A stretch of 59,159 bases of DNA from Candidatus Woesebacteria bacterium (GCA_020060845.1 JAGUZK010000060.1:1-59159); one strand, 5' to 3'; positions 8,796-35,032 are shown, counted from the stretch's first letter. The notes: generated by a model not told the origin, from the sequence alone. Numbers and translations are program-made.

Positions 8796-9016
8796 GCTTT
8801 TTGTATCAAGGTTTTGACTTTTTTGGATAACAATGCCCCGTTTTTAATCCATGCTTCCAGCTTATCTTTATCAATTTCGATACTGTCCTTTCTTGGATAC
8901 CAATATCCGATTATATCCAACGGTTTGCCTGTCACCTTTCGCTTATCTTCAATTGCTACTACTCTAAAAAAGTGATCATTTTTCTTTCCCTGCTTGGTTA
9001 GCCTGATTTTGATCAT
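8792..9016 (-). CDS. rpsP: 30S ribosomal protein S16
   Basis: MIKIRL...GKKN..FFRVVA...IGYW.P...WIKNGA. Confidence 0.95.
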   Translation of the reverse strand: MIKIRLTKQGKKNDHFFRVVAIEDKRKVTGKPLDIIGYWYPRKDSIEIDKDKLEAWIKNGALLSKKVKTLIQKA

Positions 9017-9066
9017 AAGATATTTATATGCTTTAATATATCAAAAATATTCAGTTTTGTATATAT

Positions 9067-9735
9067 TTATTGTGAAAGTTTAGAAAGAGCTTTTTTGGCG
9101 GCGTCTTGTGCAGCTTCGCTTTTGTTTTTTCCTGTTCCAATTGCCTGTGCCTTGCCGTTTATGATTACTTGGATACTGAAGGTTTTATCGTGATCTGGTC
9201 CTGTTTCGCTTACCACCTCATATTTTGGTGCGGGATATCCTCTTGCCTGGACTAGTTCTTGAAGGAGGCTCTTGGCGTCCTTGAGAGGTTGAGCAAGTTT
9301 GTCATCAAGACTTGAAAGTATGAACTCTTTAATAAATTCTTCAGATTTTTCGATACCTCCATCAAGATAGATTCCTCCTATTATAGCTTCAATCGTGTCT
9401 GCAAGTATTGATTGATTTGTTCTTCCTCCAGTTTCTTCTTCTCCTTTGGATAAAAAAAGCAGGTTTCCGATACCAAGCTTTTCAGCTACACTTGCCAGGT
9501 TTGAGGTATTAACAAGATTTGCTCTTAAAGCAGTCAAGTATCCTTCTTCCTTGTCGGGAAAACGGTTGTAAAGCTCTTTTGAAATTATAAACTCCAAGAC
9601 TGCGTCACCCAAAAACTCAAGTCGCTCATTGTTTCCTCTTTGGTTGGGATGTTCATTTACCCACGAACGATGTGTAAGGGCAGTCTCTAAAATGGAGGGA
9701 TTGGTAAAAAATTTATTAATTTTGGGATTGCCCAT
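9067..9735 (-). CDS. rnc: Ribonuclease III
   Basis: ALTHRS, NERLEFLGDAVL signature, C-terminal dsRBD. Confidence 0.97.
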   Translation of the reverse strand: MGNPKINKFFTNPSILETALTHRSWVNEHPNQRGNNERLEFLGDAVLEFIISKELYNRFPDKEEGYLTALRANLVNTSNLASVAEKLGIGNLLFLSKGEEETGGRTNQSILADTIEAIIGGIYLDGGIEKSEEFIKEFILSSLDDKLAQPLKDAKSLLQELVQARGYPAPKYEVVSETGPDHDKTFSIQVIINGKAQAIGTGKNKSEAAQDAAKKALSKLSQ

Positions 9736-9741
9736 AAAAAG

Positions 9742-9981
9742 TTAAATATTATCTTCAAGTTCAAGCGATTCGGTGAGATCTGCTACGCTCTCTATTTTTG
9801 AAAGATCAACTCGTTTGGTGTCGAACCCATTTTCCTCAAGTATGTGGACAAAATCAGACAAGTCGGATGGCTGCATATGCAGATCTTCAGAGAAGCTGTC
9901 ATCATTGTCGATGTCCTCCACACTAACCCCAATGAACTCCGCAAGTATTTGCTTAAACTGTAATAACTTTGTCTTTTCCAT
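9742..9981 (-). CDS. Acyl-carrier-protein-like protein with non-canonical attachment motif
   Basis: Small acidic protein with ACP-like pattern (ILAEFIGV..EDI..D.SF.EDL...D...F..ILEE...IESVADL) located before rnc. The DSL motif is altered. Start set at the ATG at 9981. Confidence 0.65.
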   Translation of the reverse strand: MEKTKLLQFKQILAEFIGVSVEDIDNDDSFSEDLHMQPSDLSDFVHILEENGFDTKRVDLSKIESVADLTESLELEDNI

Positions 9982-10065
9982 AACAATAAAAAACAATCAA
10001 AAAAAAGATTAATCTATAAATTTAAGGAATGCAAGAAGCATTATCATCCAAATACAATACCCTAT

Positions 10066-10434
10066 TTAGATGTTCTCCTCATGCACTTTACCTTCTAATA
10101 TTGCTCCGAGTACACCATTGACAAAACTTGGTGTACTTTCACTGCCAAAAAGCTTTCCCAATTCCACAGCCTCGTCTATAACAACTTTTGTGGGGGTACT
10201 GGTAAATTTAAGTTCATATACCCCAAGTCTAAGTATTGCCAGGTCAATTCGGTTTAGTTTGTCAATAGGGCGCTGAGGAGCAGCTTTTGAAATCATCTCG
10301 TCTATAGTTTTGACATTCTTCAAAATAAGTTTGGTAAGCTCAGATGCATTTTCTTGATTTGTAAATCCTTGTGCAAACAATTCCTTTACAGTCTTAATGC
10401 GTTTAATATGCCTGGGGTCTTTTGCTGTTTTCAT
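10066..10434 (-). CDS. nusB: Transcription antitermination factor NusB
   Basis: IDLAILRLGVYEL, VVIDEAVELGKLFG, FVNGVLG. ATG at 10434. Confidence 0.93.
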   Translation of the reverse strand: MKTAKDPRHIKRIKTVKELFAQGFTNQENASELTKLILKNVKTIDEMISKAAPQRPIDKLNRIDLAILRLGVYELKFTSTPTKVVIDEAVELGKLFGSESTPSFVNGVLGAILEGKVHEENI

Positions 10435-10460
10435 TGGGCAAATTCTAGCTCTTTTCAATC

Positions 10461-10625
10461 CTAGTCACGATAGTACCCGCAGTTGGGGCACGCCGTATGG
10501 TTTTTGCGAAGCTTGCCACATTTTTTGCATTTGACAACCCCACTAATTACCCTTCTTTTTGATGGAGAGTTTCTTCTCTTTCCGCTCCTTGAGTGTGTGT
10601 GTTTCTTTTTTGGAACTGGTGCCAT
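10461..10625 (-). CDS. rpmF: 50S ribosomal protein L32 (54 aa, absent from the ORF track)
   Basis: Manual translation MAPVPKKKHTHSRSGKRRNSPSKRRVISGVVKCKKCGKLRKNHTACPNCGYYRD, a zinc-ribbon L32. Confidence 0.95.
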   Translation of the reverse strand: MAPVPKKKHTHSRSGKRRNSPSKRRVISGVVKCKKCGKLRKNHTACPNCGYYRD

Positions 10626-10671
10626 AACTTAGCAATTTTAGTCTTAATAGGAAGAATGTGCAATACCAAGA

Positions 10672-12687
10672 TTAGTTTAGCAAAGTTATATCTCCATAGA
10701 AATATCTAAAGATTTGAGTAAACAGTTTTTTGTCTTTTGAAATTTCTTCTGAGGTGTTTTTGGCTTTTTTTATTAAGTCAAAATCACTCCAGCTAGCAGC
10801 TTTTAATTTTGAAAAGCCGCTTTGTGCGGTGCCAAAAATTTCTCCCGGGCCACGTAGTTCAAGGTCCATTTGAGCAAGTTTTGCCCCCGAATGATGTTTG
10901 CTAAGGAGGCTTAATCTTTTATGAATTTTTTCTGAGTGGCTTTGGGTGAACAAGAGGCAGTAGGATTTTTGGTTACCTCTCCCCACTCTGCCTCTTAATT
11001 GGTGTAGTTGGGCAAGCCCGAAACGCTCTGCTGCCTCAATCACTATTATTGCGGCTCTTGGAATATCCACTCCAACTTCTACCACAGCAGTAGAAACCAA
11101 GATGTCGATTTTTCCGTTTCTGAGATTGTCAATCACTCTTTCTTTTTCAGGAGTTTTTAGCCTTCCATGCAAAAGCCCAACACCAAATTCTGGAAATACT
11201 TTTCTAACATTTTCAAATTCTTTTTTTGCTGACTTTATATCTTTTAGGGATTCCTTGTCCGATTCCTCTATCAGCGGGCAAACTATGAAAACCGCAATTT
11301 TCTCATTGATTATCTTTTGTCTGATCCATTCATATGCCCCTACTCTTTTTTCCGGAGGAACGATCCAAGTTGTGGTGGGAATTCTGCCCTTTGGCATCTC
11401 GTCTAGCACTGAGAGGTCTAGGTCTCCATATAAACTCATTGCTACAGTTCTTGGGATTGGCGTTGCTGTCATAGTTAAAACATGCGGAATTTTTCCCTTT
11501 TTTCCACCCTCAACTATTAGGTGTGTCCGTTGTTCAACACCGAAGCGATGTTGCTCATCAATGACGACAAGTGCGACTTTGTCAAAGTCTAGGTTTCTAT
11601 GGAGAAGTGCATGGGTGCCAACAAAAATATCTGTTTTACCCTCGGTGGTTTTTGATATAGATCCAGAGAGAAGAGAAATTTTTATATCTTGATTTTTAAA
11701 TATGCTCTGTAGCGTGTTGTAGTGTTGGATAGCAAGTATTTGGGTTGGTGCCATAATTGCACTCTGGTATCCTAAAGTGTAAGCTGCGTAGCAGGCCGCA
11801 GCGGCAACTGCTGTTTTTCCCGATCCCACATCGCCCTCTAAAAGCCTATTCATTGGTGTTGTTTTTTGGAGGTCGCTGAAGATTTCTTTAATTGCAGTAA
11901 TCTGGCTGTTTGTTAGTTGAAAAGGAAGCATCTTTTCATATCTTGATAGGATGTCTTTTTTGATGTTTAGCTGAGCTGTGGATTTATGGGATTTCCAATT
12001 TTCTTTTCTTTTTTGGTTTGTGATGAAGAGTTTTAGCAACTCATTAAACCCCAGCCTTCTTCTTGCCAATTCTACTTTTTCAAGATCGCTGGGTTTATGG
12101 GCCGTTTGGACCGCATCCTTAAATGACATCATGCCAACTGCAAATTTTTCAGGAATAAATTCTTTTAGAAGCTCCGGATAATTGTCGATCAGGAAGCCAA
12201 TTTTTGTCCTAAACCACTTCGAGGTTATTCCCTTTGTCTCAGGATATATTGGGAAAATGAGCTTGTCACTTGAAGGTATAGAGCCTTCCCAGTGTTGAAA
12301 AAGTGGAGTAACTAGCGCCTTCTGTCTGCCAATCCATTCCACTCTTCCTGAAAAGATGTAATTGCTCCCCCTTCTTATAATCGATGAAAGGTATGGTTGG
12401 GAGAACCACACGGCCTTGATCTTGCCAAATTGGTCTGACAGCTCTGCTACAAACATTTTCTTCCCACTTTTTGAGTAGATGTGGGAAGTGTTATCTACCT
12501 GGGCTTTTATTGATACAGCTTCCCCCACTCTTGCTTGGGTTGTTGTTACTATCTTGCGGAAATCTTCATACCTAAATGGGATGTGGTATAGTAAATCCTC
12601 AATGGTAGTAATCCCCAGCTTTTCCATCTTCTTTTTTACGATACTTCCGACTCCAGAGATATCAGTTACCCGGCTGTGGAGATCCAT
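10672..12687 (-). CDS. recG: ATP-dependent DNA helicase RecG
   Basis: GDVGSGKT, DEQHRFGV, TATPIPRT, QLHQLRGRVGRG, DLELRGPGE. Confidence 0.97.
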   Translation of the reverse strand: MDLHSRVTDISGVGSIVKKKMEKLGITTIEDLLYHIPFRYEDFRKIVTTTQARVGEAVSIKAQVDNTSHIYSKSGKKMFVAELSDQFGKIKAVWFSQPYLSSIIRRGSNYIFSGRVEWIGRQKALVTPLFQHWEGSIPSSDKLIFPIYPETKGITSKWFRTKIGFLIDNYPELLKEFIPEKFAVGMMSFKDAVQTAHKPSDLEKVELARRRLGFNELLKLFITNQKRKENWKSHKSTAQLNIKKDILSRYEKMLPFQLTNSQITAIKEIFSDLQKTTPMNRLLEGDVGSGKTAVAAAACYAAYTLGYQSAIMAPTQILAIQHYNTLQSIFKNQDIKISLLSGSISKTTEGKTDIFVGTHALLHRNLDFDKVALVVIDEQHRFGVEQRTHLIVEGGKKGKIPHVLTMTATPIPRTVAMSLYGDLDLSVLDEMPKGRIPTTTWIVPPEKRVGAYEWIRQKIINEKIAVFIVCPLIEESDKESLKDIKSAKKEFENVRKVFPEFGVGLLHGRLKTPEKERVIDNLRNGKIDILVSTAVVEVGVDIPRAAIIVIEAAERFGLAQLHQLRGRVGRGNQKSYCLLFTQSHSEKIHKRLSLLSKHHSGAKLAQMDLELRGPGEIFGTAQSGFSKLKAASWSDFDLIKKAKNTSEEISKDKKLFTQIFRYFYGDITLLN

Positions 12688-20119: not shown

Positions 20120-20230
20120 TTATTTTATTATATTAGATAGTTGGCCCAGATGCATTATCTTGGAATATGCGACATTGTTTTGATATTTCCCGACAATGAT
20201 CATCATCCCTGGGCCGCGATGTTGGGCATT

Positions 20231-20252
20231 AAAAAACCCCGCTTTTGCGGGG
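20231..20252 (-). terminator. Intrinsic terminator (attenuator 3:4 hairpin) upstream of pheS
   Basis: Minus strand CCCCGC-AAAA-GCGGGG-TTTTTT. Confidence 0.85.
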
Positions 20253-20293
20253 GTTAAAACTTTTTCTTGGTCCAGCAAAGCTTTAACTCCCGC

Positions 20294-20338
20294 TTAGGCG
20301 AGAGTAAAGCCAAAACTGTTTACTTCATTTGTTTGCAT
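20294..20338 (-). CDS. Putative pheST leader peptide (MQTNEVNSFGFTLA)
   Basis: 14-aa ORF whose two Phe codons lie at the start of segment 1 of a 1:2/2:3/3:4 attenuator; same position as E. coli pheM (between rplT and pheS). Confidence 0.7.
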   Translation of the reverse strand: MQTNEVNSFGFTLA

Positions 20339-30348: not shown

Positions 30349-30566
30349 AAAGGTCTTTTCTATACATTTTTAATATTTTTTATTATATCACAACTTATTA
30401 ATCCTAGCTTTACGTTAATTTTTGATAGAAGTAATTTTTTTTATTAGTTTGGAAACCAAACCTGGTATGATTTAGCTTGGCAAACAAGGATTTAAGTTTT
30501 TTCTTTCTCACCACTTGCGATTAACTTAGTGTTTACCTATAATGTCTAAACTTCCTTGAGGTAGTT

Positions 30567-32103: not shown

Positions 32104-32121
32104 GAAAATAATCCATTAATT

Positions 32122-32139
32122 CAAACCTGGTTTGGTCTA
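32122..32139. repeat. Palindromic REP-like repeat CAAACCTGGTTTGGTCTA
   Basis: Exact 18-nt copy at 33047-33064; degenerate copy near 30456. Confidence 0.6.
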
Positions 32140-32330: not shown

Positions 32331-32403
32331 TGGACCGTGCCGGATTTGAACCGGCGACCTTCTGACTGCCAGCCAGACGCTCTACCAACTAAGCTAACGG
32401 CCC
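32331..32403 (-). tRNA. tRNA-Ala(GGC)
   Basis: Cloverleaf, anticodon loop CT-GGC-AG, G3:U70. Confidence 0.95.
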
Positions 32404-32418
32404 GAATCATTAGGAGAG

Positions 32419-32492
32419 TGGACGCGCCAGGGTTCGAACCTGGGACCTTTCGCACGTCAAGCGAACGCTCTGGCCAGCTGAGCTACGCGTCC
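32419..32492 (-). tRNA. tRNA-Val(GAC)
   Basis: Cloverleaf, anticodon loop TT-GAC-GT, GGTTCGAA T-loop. Confidence 0.95.
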
Positions 32493-32575
32493 CGGATTTA
32501 GATATTATATTACAAAGCTGGCACTTGTAAAATAACAACATCAAAATTAAGTGTAAAATTCTATTGAAACAAACC

Positions 32576-32998
32576 TTATTTTGCTAGTGCAATTAGGATT
32601 GCACCTATGGTCATTAATATAGAGCCAAAAGCTATTTGAAAGTTAATTTTTTCCTTTAGAATTAACCCAGCAAAGATGATTGTCAAAACAAGGCTCAGCT
32701 TATCTATTGGTGCAACTTTACTTGCCTCCCCTATCTTTAATGCATAAAAATAGAAAAGCCAGGAGAGTCCAGTTGCAACCCCAGAAAGAATTAAAAAAAT
32801 CCACGAATTTTTACTGACATTAGATAGACCCGTTTGTCCGTTTTGGAATAAAACTATCCCCCAAGTAAAAAAAAGGATAACTGTTGTTCTTATTGCGGTG
32901 GCCAAGTTGCTGTGTATGTCCTTTATTCCGATTTTGGCAAGAATCGAAGTTAACGCTGCAAATAAAGCCGATAAAAAAGCTGCAAGATACCAGCTCAT
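32576..32998 (-). CDS. EamA/DMT-family transporter (single repeat)
   Basis: SALFAALTSILAKIG, ATAIRT, LSWLFYFYALK.G.AS.VAPIDKLS. Confidence 0.9.
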   Translation of the reverse strand: MSWYLAAFLSALFAALTSILAKIGIKDIHSNLATAIRTTVILFFTWGIVLFQNGQTGLSNVSKNSWIFLILSGVATGLSWLFYFYALKIGEASKVAPIDKLSLVLTIIFAGLILKEKINFQIAFGSILMTIGAILIALAK

Positions 32999-33033
32999 AT
33001 TTAGAGTGTAGCAGATTACCCTGGTCTTGGTAA

Positions 33034-33096
33034 ATTAGTTTCCATCCAAACCTGGTTTGGTCTAGCTTAACAAAGAAGGATATAGACCAAACCGGG
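33034..33096. repeat. REP-like hairpin repeat
   Basis: CCTGGTTTGGTCTA pairs with TAGACCAAACCGGG; 33034-33084 resembles 30443-30494. Confidence 0.55.
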
Positions 33097-33261
33097 AAGG
33101 AGCTCAGGAAAGAGCTAAAGGGCTCATTCCTTGGCGATATTCGGGAATGAAAGAGTGTCGATCATTCTACGTCAGACAATCACTCAAGTTTAGCCCCATA
33201 GATATACTCCGCTCTTGATATGACATATTTTTTAGCAAAAATGAAAATTATTTTCCCAGCT

Positions 33262-33287
33262 AAAAAACCTCTTCTTTTGGAAGAGGT
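33262..33287 (-). terminator. Intrinsic terminator (attenuator 3:4 hairpin)
   Basis: Minus strand ACCTCTTC-CAAAA-GAAGAGGT-TTTTT. Confidence 0.85.
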
Positions 33288-33321
33288 CTGATGTAAATTA
33301 AATAAAAATTACCTCACCACA

Positions 33322-33378
33322 TCAGACCTCGCCCTTAAAAAGGACGAGACTAATGATAATGAGGTTTAGAGATTTCAT
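33322..33378 (-). CDS. Putative attenuator leader peptide (MKSLNLIIISLVLFKGEV)
   Basis: Three tandem Ile codons (ATT ATC ATT) in segment 1 of alternative hairpins; TTGACA-18-TAAAAT promoter at 33391-33420. Confidence 0.65.
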   Translation of the reverse strand: MKSLNLIIISLVLFKGEV

Positions 33379-33446
33379 GATATGAGGCATATTTTATAGG
33401 TATTAGATTTACCCTGTCAAGTATTGTTTATTGATTAGACAGAGAT

Positions 33447-34073
33447 TTATCCTGCCGACCTTGAAACAAAGTGTTCGCTTGAGAGAAGGTATTTTGCACC
33501 ATGTTTTTTGTAGTTTAATCCCCACATATTTTTCTTTGCTACTCTTTTATTTGCACTCCTCAGCCAGTTTGATGCGCTTTCAATTTTTATCTTGAACGAC
33601 TTTATGTATTCCAAAAGTTTCTTGAAAAAAGCTATATGATAGGGACCAGGTTCAGCTGGTGATTGGAAAGCTGCAATTTGAGTCTCTTTTGCGAGTTTTT
33701 TTAGTTTTTGGGTTGCAAGAATAGTTTCTTGTTGTAGCATCTTAAGCTGGACTCGTAGCTCGTTTGTCTTTCTTTCTGCAAGAATTCTTTCTTCCTCAAT
33801 GAGTGTCCTTTCGAAAAATAATTCTTTTTTAGCTTCACTTTTGCCCTGTTGTTTGGCTTGAAGAATTTCCTGTATTGATACGGATGTTCCCGGTTTAATT
33901 TCTCCCGAAGCGCCTTTGATATTAATACCAAGAAGTTGCTCTATGAAGTCACTTGTAATATTTGTAGCCTCGTCTTTAAGTTTCCCCACAGTATCTTTCC
34001 CTATGTTGTTTAAGGACTCAAGCGGGTTAGGGATTACTCCTGGTTGATTTGACTTTGTCTTTCCTTTTGCCAT
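33447..34073 (-). CDS. Hypothetical coiled-coil protein (resembles CPR DUF5660-type proteins)
   Basis: PGPYHIAFF...IESASNWL...KKHGAKYLLSSEH..SRSAG. Family assignment from recall only. Confidence 0.55.
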   Translation of the reverse strand: MAKGKTKSNQPGVIPNPLESLNNIGKDTVGKLKDEATNITSDFIEQLLGINIKGASGEIKPGTSVSIQEILQAKQQGKSEAKKELFFERTLIEEERILAERKTNELRVQLKMLQQETILATQKLKKLAKETQIAAFQSPAEPGPYHIAFFKKLLEYIKSFKIKIESASNWLRSANKRVAKKNMWGLNYKKHGAKYLLSSEHFVSRSAG

Positions 34074-34165
34074 AGTGGCTTTAAAGTTTGGGCAAAATTA
34101 TACACTATCAAGGCAGATTTAGCAACCTATAACTATAGGACTCACAAGGCAATGATGTGAATGGA

Positions 34166-35032
34166 CTAAGAACCAACCAGCGAAACCAATTGATTTAAAG
34201 TTTTCCGTTTGATAAGAATAGATTCTACTAGCCTTCTTTTTTGTGGAGAATCAAATTCCTTTTGAAGACTGGGGTCTGAGTTGATGCTGATTTTTATTGC
34301 CTCATCAACCTCTTCGTTTGTGACAGAAATACCTTCTTGATGGGAGATTTTAGCAAGGATAAAGTCAAGAGTGATAGCTTGCTCTGCCTGTTTCTCGTAC
34401 TCTGATCTTATATCTTCAATTTTTTTGCCAATTGATGAAAGGTATGATTGTAGTGTGAGCCCTAGTCTGTCAACTTGTTCAAGAAGCCTCGACAAGCGGG
34501 CATCTACCTCTTCCTCTATTAACATCCTGGGAATTTTTACGTTTGAGGTTGATAAAAGAGCCGAAATCACTGCCTGCTCTTTTTGTTCGTATGTCTTGGG
34601 AGAGTCTTGATTGCTATCACCCGGCTTCCAAATCTTTGCAGTTGAGCCTTTGATAGCTGATTTATAATCTCCAAGTGGAAATTCGGGCATTTCTGCTGTA
34701 GTTGCAGTAATCTGCCAATCTTCTTGGTCATCTGCTTTTATTATATTAAATTTAGGATAGACAATCGGCTTTAAGTCTTCCTGCTCGATCGTTTTAGCAA
34801 AGTATTTTGGAAGTATTATCTGTAAAGCGTTTTCTATTAATGTTTGGTGCGGAATTTTCTCTATAACTTTTTCAATGGGGGCCATGCCCTTCCTAAAGCC
34901 TGCAATCTCAATTTCCTTGCCCAAATCCTCAGCTGCCTTTTTTTTGGCATCTTCAATCTCGGAATATGGGATTGTATAGGTTATTTGAATTGTCCCGTCA
35001 TCGCTTTTGGCTAAGGTATAGTTTTTATTCAT
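34166..35032 (-). CDS. tig: Trigger factor lacking the PPIase domain
   Basis: GFRKGMAP ribosome-binding signature joined directly to the C-terminal domain (IPRMLIEEEV); about 290 aa. Confidence 0.88.
   Translation of the reverse strand: MNKNYTLAKSDDGTIQITYTIPYSEIEDAKKKAAEDLGKEIEIAGFRKGMAPIEKVIEKIPHQTLIENALQIILPKYFAKTIEQEDLKPIVYPKFNIIKADDQEDWQITATTAEMPEFPLGDYKSAIKGSTAKIWKPGDSNQDSPKTYEQKEQAVISALLSTSNVKIPRMLIEEEVDARLSRLLEQVDRLGLTLQSYLSSIGKKIEDIRSEYEKQAEQAITLDFILAKISHQEGISVTNEEVDEAIKISINSDPSLQKEFDSPQKRRLVESILIKRKTLNQLVSLVGS

Follow-up and report, generated by a model that had tools for sequence, protein, structure and literature searches.

The window analyzed here is the whole stretch of 59,159 nucleotides of DNA from a Candidatus Woesebacteria bacterium, whose genome is designated G000. 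On its minus strand, the genes for trigger factor and a DUF5660 protein are followed by a promoter-like site, a short open reading frame and a set of hairpins that ends in an intrinsic terminator, and then by a spacer and a gene for an EamA-family transporter; tRNA genes come next. The initial annotation had interpreted positions 33420-33262 as an intact attenuator of the ilv/thr design. When the sequence was re-read, every element that it had listed was found in place, with the single correction that the terminator ends in six Ts and not five; the next coding sequence, which it had put about 260 nt away, does encode an EamA protein and starts 263 nt past the T run. The features are as follows.

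34073-33447, minus strand: gene for a DUF5660 protein of 208 aa (Pfam), upstream of the attenuator and preceded by the trigger factor gene
33420-33415, minus strand: -35 hexamer TTGACA, kept as TTGACA in the relatives G013 and G001
33396-33391, minus strand: -10 hexamer TAAAAT, separated by a spacer of 18 from the -35 and ending 12 nt before the ATG
33378 (ATG) to 33324-33322 (TGA), minus strand: leader ORF (uORF) of 18 codons plus TGA, MKSLNLIIISLVLFKGEV, with frame, ATG position and stop kept in homologues
33365-33340, minus strand: segment 1, the 5' arm of hairpin 1:2, from the fold and covariation
33360-33352, minus strand: regulatory codons ATT ATC ATT (Ile-Ile-Ile), codons 7-9, within segment 1
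33336-33311, minus strand: segment 2, the 3' arm of hairpin 1:2, from the fold and covariation; includes the stop codon of the uORF as well as the antiterminator's 5' strand
33330-33319, minus strand: antiterminator 5' strand GAGGTCTGATGT, a perfect complement of ACATCAGACCTC
33294-33283, minus strand: segment 3, ACATCAGACCTC, the 3' strand of the 12-bp antiterminator (2:3), overlapping the terminator 5' arm
33289-33262, minus strand: intrinsic terminator with a 10-bp stem, AGACCTCTTC (33289-33280) and GAAGAGGTTT (33274-33265)
33267-33262, minus strand: T6 run of the terminator, whose loop is CAAAA
33255-33062, minus strand: spacer segment of 194 nt with no recognizable gene, present in G000 and strains X2 and X3 and replaced by other DNA in strain X6
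32998-32576, minus strand: gene for an EamA-family transporter of 140 aa, the next coding sequence downstream (Pfam EamA, E 2.3e-23)

A promoter scan of 32400-34200 returned TTGACA-18-TAAAAT as the top promoter-like site, with 11 of 12 positions matching. The uORF start at 33378 has no Shine-Dalgarno sequence upstream, and because the -10 hexamer ends so close to it, the uORF is predicted to be leaderless or nearly leaderless, with the transcription start site deduced on the same grounds. The RNA from 33395 to 33255 folds with a minimum free energy of -46.1 kcal/mol, compared with -25.8 ± 3.3 for dinucleotide shuffles (z = -6.2; none of 200 shuffles was as stable), and in this fold hairpin 1:2 consists of 25 pairs joining 33365-33340 to 33336-33311, with the Ile codons inside. 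The equivalent of the terminator in G013 was also scored as terminator-like by the terminator scan. Between the end of DUF5660 at 33447 and position 33262 no other terminator was found, so that the DUF5660 transcript has none of its own before the attenuator. At the Rfam gathering threshold, the whole window gave tRNAs only; at E ≤ 10, the interval 32900-33500 gave 15 weak, chance-level matches to miRNA and snoRNA families, with no match to the T-box (RF00230) or to the Thr, Leu, His, Trp or Phe leader families.

When 40 relatives were searched at the DNA level, the element turned up in three other genera, with identities of 83% in G013, 78% in G001 and 71% in G002. In the alignment, G013 and G001 retain both promoter hexamers, and all three retain the ATG, the frame and the TGA. 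A covariance model, R1, built from these three sequences and that of G000, added close copies in G140 and G044 and two tandem copies in G063. Helix covariation was tested on the 8 closest sequences. For the 12 pairs of the antiterminator, 91.7% of 96 cells were paired as against 30-55% in slid controls, a comparison that is biased in favor of the structure because it was taken from G000; 4 pairs had changed on both sides, and such compensatory changes are independent of that bias. The antiterminator covariation score was 0.250 compared with 0.170, and 0 of 500 shuffles reached 0.250. The terminated form gave a similar picture: over its 35 pairs 90.7% of cells were paired, and both partners had changed in 10 of the pairs (0 of 500 shuffles). 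For example, GGTCTGA/TCAGACC is replaced by GGTTTGA/TCAAACC in G002, and GATGT/ACATC by GACGT/CGTC in G001. The latter genome also reads ATC ATT ATC where G000 has ATT ATC ATT, so that the third positions of all three codons differ and isoleucine is kept. Since homologues in seven other genera retain the ORF in frame and all three helices, the latter with compensatory changes, the element is more than a chance structure, and its anatomy, its folding energy and its covarying, mutually exclusive helices bear out the ilv/thr design proposed for it.

The element is also one of many in this family of small-genome bacteria. At E ≤ 0.01, 73 of the family's 125 genomes, from 53 of its 81 genera, gave an R1 match, and a single genome has as many as five copies; these counts are a lower bound because R1 is sequence-specific. 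Across the order at E ≤ 1e-4, matches were found in 42 of 124 genomes of this family, in 1 of 11 of a second family and in 0 of 3 of a third. An exact-pattern scan of the genome collection gave 3 exact matches only and is not a measure of distribution. Inspection of 57 R1 matches showed that nearly all have TTGACA-17/18-TAnAAT with an ATG a few nt past the -10 and no Shine-Dalgarno sequence, and that in nearly all a short ORF enters the 5' arm of the hairpin and a terminator follows. The regulated gene, or cargo, begins 0-30 nt past the T run in most family members.

Across these elements the type of leader tracks the downstream gene. The three leaders linked to thrS (MHKIFVTTTTTFLFCEE, MSTILNIFTTTTAL and MKLYKYFTTTTAS) all contain runs of 4-5 Thr. 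Five of the six pheS-linked elements have a separate Phe-rich leader (MRIMSFTSFFFKT, MLKNFFSTGFSFIMF, MHTFNFIGFLFTL, MKEAFIFTNFFFRIN and the window's own MQTNEVNSFGFTLA, at 20222-20334, which precedes pheS), and in the sixth the end of the upstream gene takes the place of the leader. Codon runs that match the synthetase, Thr with thrS and Phe with pheS, are what sensing by a ribosome predicts and are hard to fit with a shared ligand or protein. These findings support the earlier proposal that this element and the one at pheS belong to a lineage-wide system, and we suggest from the genomic comparison that it is a system of classical attenuation, apparently with leaderless leader ORFs.

Several observations bear indirectly on whether the leader is translated. 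In 42 of 51 elements an ORF beginning with ATG runs through the 5' arm, whereas 200 shuffles averaged 10.3 and never exceeded 19; the count is not fully independent, since R1 includes an ATG column and so favors aligned ATGs. Insertions of 33-70 nt on the 5' side, found in G002, both copies of G063, G139 and G068, lie between the start and the Ile region; the frame nonetheless stays open, giving leaders of 29-41 aa, and the ATG remains just past the -10. Conservation of the peptide is not cleanly separable from constraint on the RNA, because the Ile codons lie within a G.U-rich stem, where they pair with a G-rich strand and C/U changes are neutral for the RNA as well. We infer that the uORF is translated.

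If so, the geometry of the element would suit a switch. With a ribosome stalled on 33360-33352, segment 1 would be covered and the RNA from 33336 on would stay free, as the ribosome's footprint of about 15 nt past the A site would end before segment 2; a ribosome that had reached the UGA (33324-33322) would occupy segment 2. When segment 1 was barred from pairing in silico, to mimic a stalled ribosome, the terminator disappeared from the minimum free energy structure in 30 of 52 elements, both elements of the window among them, was retained in 21 and was partly retained in 1; shuffling of segment 2 left the terminator in place (mean 0.96). When pairing in the nascent RNA was examined, segment 2 took up 4 or more nt of the terminator 5' arm in 46 of 49 elements. 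This measure does not discriminate between real and shuffled sequences, since only 8 of the 49 beat 95% of their shuffles and mononucleotide shuffles of the G-rich segment 2 nearly equaled the real sequences. As for what is sensed, positions 6-9 of the leader are occupied by I, V, L, F, M or T in different members of the Ile/hydrophobic type, so the signal may be broader than isoleucine; the frequency of Ile codons in such A+T-rich DNA also counts against Ile-specificity.

The genes that lie behind leaders of this type in relatives were recorded, as the initial annotation had recommended. The leaders share the consensus M-x-N-x-S-L-I-I-V/I-S-F-V-L-L-F-I-E-G, and their cargo includes GCS2-like ligases, class III and class I/II aminotransferases, Asp/Glu racemases, small Cys-rich proteins and many proteins of 400-660 aa that belong to no Pfam or NCBIfam family, with M20 peptidases and an MR/MLE-type enzyme adjoining in the same clusters. 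It does not include ileS or ilv genes. NCBIfam assigned none of 10 cargo proteins to a family, and Pfam assigned none for most of them; the cargo proteins of G001 (476 aa), G063 (662 aa) and G084 (657 aa) are among those without a known family. In searches of the PDB with phmmer, the G001 cargo protein had no match and that of G013 had matches at E > 0.5 only. In a protein atlas, the 573-aa cargo of G013 gave a feature score of 0.96 and TM values of 0.56-0.70 to ATP-grasp clusters, and the 476-aa cargo of G001 gave weak leads to clusters resembling glutathione and glutathionylspermidine synthetases. These leads suggest that the cargo of the two closest homologues may resemble ATP-grasp-type amide ligases. 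The genes of the Ile type could form a set for scavenging or converting amino acids and peptides that would be switched on when hydrophobic amino acids are scarce. The ties of Thr to thrS and Phe to pheS are clear in the sister elements; any tie of the Ile-type cargo to isoleucine would be conjectural.

None of 30 ileS loci in the family, that of G000 included, has the element directly upstream; the two weak R1 matches near ileS lie 0.7 kb off or inside the gene. In most ileS loci a -10 box stands a few nt ahead of the ATG; 2 of the 30 have a T-box motif instead. In G000, such a leader is absent from upstream of ileS, valS, leuS and metS, among them the three genes that the annotation had singled out for inspection, and ileS and valS have a -10 box immediately before the ATG. 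Neither ilvC nor ilvE was found in this genome, which is 93.5% complete. The annotation had offered as one reading that the element was an orphan left after ileS moved away. On these results the connection to ileS does not hold, as the cargo in relatives is of another kind; the orphan state itself stands, as described below.

A comparison of gene orders indicates what may once have stood behind the element. In G013 the order is trigger factor, DUF5660, an M20 peptidase gene, the attenuator, the gene for the 573-aa ATP-grasp-like protein, a methyltransferase-like gene and a further M20 gene. The order trigger factor, DUF5660, attenuator is common to G000, G013 (with M20 between), G090 and G122, and G090, G122 and G084 have variants of the G013 neighborhood. 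When 69 proteins from attenuator loci of relatives were compared with G000 (tblastn, E ≤ 1e-3), 57 had no match, including all of the M20, GCS2 and ligase-like proteins; the 12 that matched were DUF5660, EamA itself, thrS, pheS, greA and one other. The same 69 proteins gave no convincing gene remnant in the spacer (best E 0.013), and a search of 30 relatives with positions 33062-33255 gave nothing at E ≤ 0.001. An ORF of 19 codons in the spacer (MSYQERSISMGLNLSDCLT, 33225-33166) was considered as a gene and found to be without support.

Metagenomic contigs of close strains add to this comparison. The X2 and X3 contigs, which come from two other studies and are independent assemblies, cover 32500-34200 unbroken, so the junction is not misassembled and the concern about assembly continuity near 33.2 kb is removed. 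They are identical to G000 left of 33297; right of it they carry 18 substitutions and, in the A/T spacer 33297-33315, 7 small gaps. Five of the 18 substitutions fall in 33391-33426 and include the last T of the -10, and the promoter may therefore be decaying or may never have been essential. Another difference changes GGC to GAC (Gly to Asp in the peptide, U.G to U-A in the stem), the same change as in G001. Strain X6 is informative in another way. One of its contigs differs from G000 by a single letter over 33256-34160 and then continues directly past the terminator with AAGGA-ATG-AAA-AAA-GTA-CTT, which reads as a ribosome-binding site with a gene beginning 11 nt past the T run, an arrangement seen elsewhere in the family. 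A further X6 contig aligns to 32500-33061 with 17 differences, beyond which it departs from G000. The loose ends of the X6 matches thus lie at 33061 and 33256, which makes 33062-33255 specific to the allele of G000, X2 and X3. In an effort to recover the X6 cargo, a metagenome scan with the 30-letter loose end returned 0 matches, and a scan by hairpin motif returned only a locus of the G013 type (L093). Among RNA data sets none was found to contain 32500-34200, and the one metatranscriptome compared, X16, yielded 0 contigs, a result that carries no information on expression.

The close strain X6 retains a gene in the cargo position, and the simplest reading is that G000 has lost or replaced its cargo recently, at the level of strains. 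Comparison with the relatives suggests that the event was probably a deletion in G000 and not an insertion in X6.

Taken together, we consider it probable that the element is a genuine classical leader-peptide attenuator of the trp/ilv/pheST design, one of a family-wide set, whose cargo was recently lost in G000. The features of a classical attenuator are present: an ORF at the 5' end of the transcript, a codon cluster in segment 1, mutually exclusive helices and a 3:4 terminator. A regulated gene directly downstream is absent in G000 and is found in most relatives and in X6. In the mechanism that we propose, a sigma-70-type promoter would start the RNA a few nt before the 18-codon ORF, where initiation would be of the leaderless type. 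Segment 1 could pair with segment 2, or segment 2 could instead pair over 12 bp with segment 3, a stretch shared in part with the terminator's 5' arm (3:4 plus U6). With ample charged Ile-tRNA, the ribosome would reach the UGA and cover segment 2, the terminator would form and transcription would stop near 33262; if there were no translation, 1:2 and 3:4 would both form and termination would result as well. When Ile-tRNA is scarce, perhaps also Val- or Leu-tRNA, the ribosome would stall on segment 1, 2:3 would pair and RNA polymerase would read through. The response to Ile and the position of the transcription start are deduced steps of this scheme. The intact switch now stands 263 nt upstream of EamA, a gene that most likely has a promoter of its own; as an orphan, the switch may still terminate the trigger factor/DUF5660 transcript, and read-through may add to the expression of EamA.

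That the attenuator actively regulates EamA, with starvation for isoleucine or branched-chain amino acids causing read-through across the spacer and so raising the amount of an amino-acid or metabolite transporter, was the alternative that the initial annotation had considered, and we find it unlikely. The switch is wholly intact in G000, EamA is on the same strand, and no intrinsic terminator is predicted in 33262-32998, where the sole hairpin lacks a T run; moreover, with ilvC and ilvE not found, the cell must import isoleucine. However, none of 13 loci with EamA orthologues in relatives (38-79% identity) has the element within 1.5 kb. The upstream DNA of the nine closest orthologues (63-79% identity) was inspected and has an A/T-rich -10-like box near the ATG, and G000 has a comparable but weaker site there, a putative promoter TTTACC-N18-TACACT lying 6 nt before the ATG that was read by eye and falls under the threshold of the promoter scan. 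EamA thus probably has a weak promoter of its own. The distance of 263 nt also departs from the usual 0-30 nt between T run and cargo, and X6 carries another gene right behind the same attenuator.

We also entertain, as a doubtful but broader idea, that the element is a portable regulatory cassette in which promoter, leaderless ORF, switch and terminator travel in front of unrelated cargo. The terminator and antiterminator would then serve as a recombination joint at which cargo is swapped or lost, an empty copy could be kept for a role of its leader RNA or terminator, and the cassettes together would form a starvation regulon read by ribosomes. G000 looks mosaic, as it matches X2 and X3 left of about 33297 and X6 right of 33256. 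Were this idea true, organisms with almost no amino-acid biosynthesis would possess an amino-acid-starvation regulon that is read by the ribosome itself.

It is improbable that the unit has been retained as a small gene in its own right, acting through a terminated leader RNA of about 120 nt in trans or through a functional hydrophobic peptide of 18 aa. The element does have its own promoter and terminator, both intact despite the loss of cargo, and the part of PMC6614838 drawn on here describes an attenuator RNA of Sinorhizobium, rnTrpL, that acts in trans. The occurrence of multiple copies per genome, each before a different gene, is instead the pattern of a cis-regulator, and X2 and X3 carry substitutions in the -10. 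A function of the peptide is further disfavored in that its hydrophobic stretch is too short to span a membrane and some homologues have charged residues.

Similarly improbable is a real switch that is read at hairpin 1:2 by a protein, a tRNA in the manner of a T-box or a small ligand, with the ORF being incidental. The helices are indeed conserved in nucleotide sequence, segment 2 contains GUGGU with a loose likeness to the T-box core, and T-box-like leaders are used in the lineage, for thrS in G000 and for ileS in 2 of the 30 loci. Against such a reader stand the lack of any Rfam match, T-box included, at E ≤ 10 in 32900-33500, the excess of ATG-ORFs over the 5' arm (42 of 51 elements, the shuffle mean being 10.3), the frame kept through insertions, and the codon runs that follow the synthetase, which a common ligand would not predict.

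The least probable reading, which we regard as very nearly dismissed, is that the element is merely the terminator of the trigger factor/DUF5660 operon with a promoter-like site and an ORF present by chance: DUF5660 ends at 33447 and no other terminator precedes 33262, but conservation across genera extends to the promoter, ATG, frame and antiterminator, the element follows M20, a different gene, in G013 and G002, and termination of the upstream operon is compatible with a leader-peptide attenuator as a secondary role. Separately, the SLIIVS stretch of the leader peptide resembles the ErmC leader, and an Erm-type antibiotic-sensing leader was considered for this reason; it was rejected, there being no resistance-like cargo and the codon runs tracking the identity of the synthetase.

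Returning to the leader-peptide attenuator, the element itself is an ordinary kind of switch. What makes it of interest is that an uncultivated, auxotrophic lineage has such switches family-wide, that they label genes of unknown function, and that the cassette turns over between strains. To our knowledge, members of the candidate phyla radiation do not grow by themselves in culture, and very little has been described of how they control their genes. In the largely open-access full-text literature searched, no leader-peptide attenuation was described in the candidate phyla radiation, Patescibacteria, Microgenomates or Woesebacteria. The family of switches would imply that these cells gauge, through translating ribosomes, how fully single tRNA species such as those for Ile, Thr and Phe are charged, apparently on leaderless messages. 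The switches would also mark otherwise unannotated genes, many of them without a family, as responsive to amino-acid supply and so give a handle for guessing their function. The orphan copy, in turn, may be a natural case of a regulator that outlives its cargo, with turnover at such sites at the level of strains.

The mechanism proposed is textbook attenuation as known from trp, ilv, thr, his and pheST. In E. coli, the ilvGMEDA, ilvBN, trp, thr, leu and his leaders each have a short ORF with clustered codons for the sensed amino acid or acids, exclusive 1:2, 2:3 and 3:4 helices, a stop near segment 2 and a terminator before the cargo, and the ilvGMEDA leader is multivalent. The G000 element shares the ORF with its codon cluster, the exclusive helices, the placement of the stop and the terminator, and its leader is similarly mixed in hydrophobic residues (L, I, V and F). 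Unlike the E. coli leaders, it has no sequence homology to a known leader family (Rfam, E ≤ 10), its uORF lacks a Shine-Dalgarno sequence and begins some 12 nt past the -10, and the cargo in its relatives is not biosynthetic, G000 itself having neither cargo nor a detected ilvC or ilvE. T-box leaders also choose between terminator and antiterminator on amino-acid genes, and G000 has a T-box-like leader before thrS; the element differs from them in having no Stem I specifier, T-box sequence or Rfam match and in carrying its codon runs within an ORF.

Closer to the sister elements are the attenuators of aminoacyl-tRNA synthetase genes, of which the part of PMC1262725 drawn on here names pheST in gamma-proteobacteria and trpS and leuS in Streptomyces; a leader-peptide attenuator of thrS is not among the systems named in that part. 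Compared with the systems named there, the sister elements show the same architecture before pheS, with Phe-rich leaders, and before thrS, with runs of Thr, whereas the G000 element precedes no synthetase gene, in keeping with the 0 of 30 ileS loci. Leaderless short ORFs encoding polycysteine act as Cys-responsive attenuators in mycobacteria, according to the portion of 10.1101/834739 used here, and they are likewise leaderless ORFs rich in a single amino acid at the 5' end of an operon. The likeness to that portion of 10.1101/834739 covers the leaderless ORF only, and the G000 element combines such an ORF with a full 1:2, 2:3 and 3:4 transcription switch.

A comparison of the genome of the window (G000) with near-identical strains on contigs of three public sequencing runs (X2, X3 and X6) shows that, across 32500-34200, G000 is a mosaic of strain alleles. 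Left of position 33297 its sequence matches X2 and X3 exactly, and right of this position it differs from them by 2%; right of 33256 it is nearly identical to X6, with a 3% difference in the EamA gene. The changeover maps to the spacer and terminator of the orphan Ile leader-peptide attenuator. We also observed a palindromic motif, AAACCTGGTTTGGTCTA, with the core CCAAACC/GGTTTGG, at three intergenic sites in the window:

33044-33064: intergenic copy of the palindrome
32119-32139: intergenic copy of the palindrome
about 30443-30494: intergenic copy of the palindrome

The point at which X6 diverges (33061) falls within the copy at 33044-33064, 18 nt of which are matched by an unrelated 60-kb contig of X3. 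A possible role of the palindrome, either as a repeat or as an operator, is that of a rearrangement joint.

Attenuator-like units were found at four other positions in G000, one of them in the window and three on other contigs (C50, C35 and C24):

Window 20222-20334, minus strand: second attenuator of the window, with promoter, leader, hairpin and terminator, upstream of pheS (20119-19085)
C50:8217-8350, plus strand: attenuator-like unit
C35:7554-7652, plus strand: attenuator-like unit
C24:30515-30640, plus strand: attenuator-like unit

The pheS attenuator encodes the leader peptide MQTNEVNSFGFTLA, is separated from pheS by 111 nt and scored 20 bits (E 0.05) with R1, the covariance model built from the orphan attenuator and three homologues. 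When segment 1, the 5′ arm of hairpin 1:2, was masked during in silico folding, the terminator was gone from the minimum free energy structure. Of the three units outside the window, one precedes greA (leader MEGIFSQNYRFLALLRTG), and a greA leader is likewise present in the relative G073; another precedes a small lysine-rich ORF (leader MRHQKHMLNLIHLI) and the third a gene of unknown function (leader MTTQRNNFVFFFAS).

Leader ORFs at four loci in relatives, L027 (G002), L055 (G063, two copies), L053 (G139) and L049 (G068), carry an in-frame insertion that encodes ...SLTT(K/E)...GSQA(S/L)... and contains palindromes, e.g. AGCAAAGCTTGCTT; this insertion could represent either an additional pause hairpin or a duplication of the leader start. 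A separate type of leader, ending in ...K(T/A)IINLF(T/N/I)-stop, occurs at L041, L044, L047, L050, L069 and L070, and is followed by small ORFs (62-76 aa) or by spacers of about 195 nt. Proteins of 400-660 aa encoded directly behind Ile-type attenuators (L003:223-1653, L055:2767-4755, L059:5852-7825, L073:1481-3148 and others) had no sequence match in Pfam, NCBIfam or PDB, and the Ile-type switches tag this pool of unknown proteins as tied to amino-acid supply.

In many genes, including ileS (C19) and valS (C22) of G000, those at loci L094-L122 and the EamA orthologues at L077-L085, a TGnTAnAAT-like −10 box ends just 6-13 nt upstream of the ATG and no Shine-Dalgarno sequence is present, which suggests widespread use of leaderless mRNAs in the family.

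Upstream of thrS, the window carries a further candidate leader:

23416-23569, minus strand: reduced T-box-like leader upstream of thrS (23362-21605), matching RF00230

With 34.5 bits and an E value of 2.6e-6, this match fell short of the gathering score (93); the leader contains the core AGUGGAACCGCG, with Stem I mostly missing. In the relatives G051, G010 and G084, by contrast, thrS is preceded by a Thr-run leader peptide instead, and judging from these leaders thrS would be under two different RNA control mechanisms inside one family.

On contig C4 of G013, an EamA orthologue adjoins ileS in divergent orientation (8870-11470, minus strand, and 11665-12084, plus strand); this is the only EamA-ileS link observed and is probably coincidental. 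At L097 (G020) and L099 (G017), the ileS ATG is preceded at a distance of about 35-45 nt by the canonical T-box core AAGGTGGTACCGCG, with no obvious terminator at either locus. These cores resemble the translational T-boxes upstream of ileS that are on record for Actinobacteria (PMC1262725).
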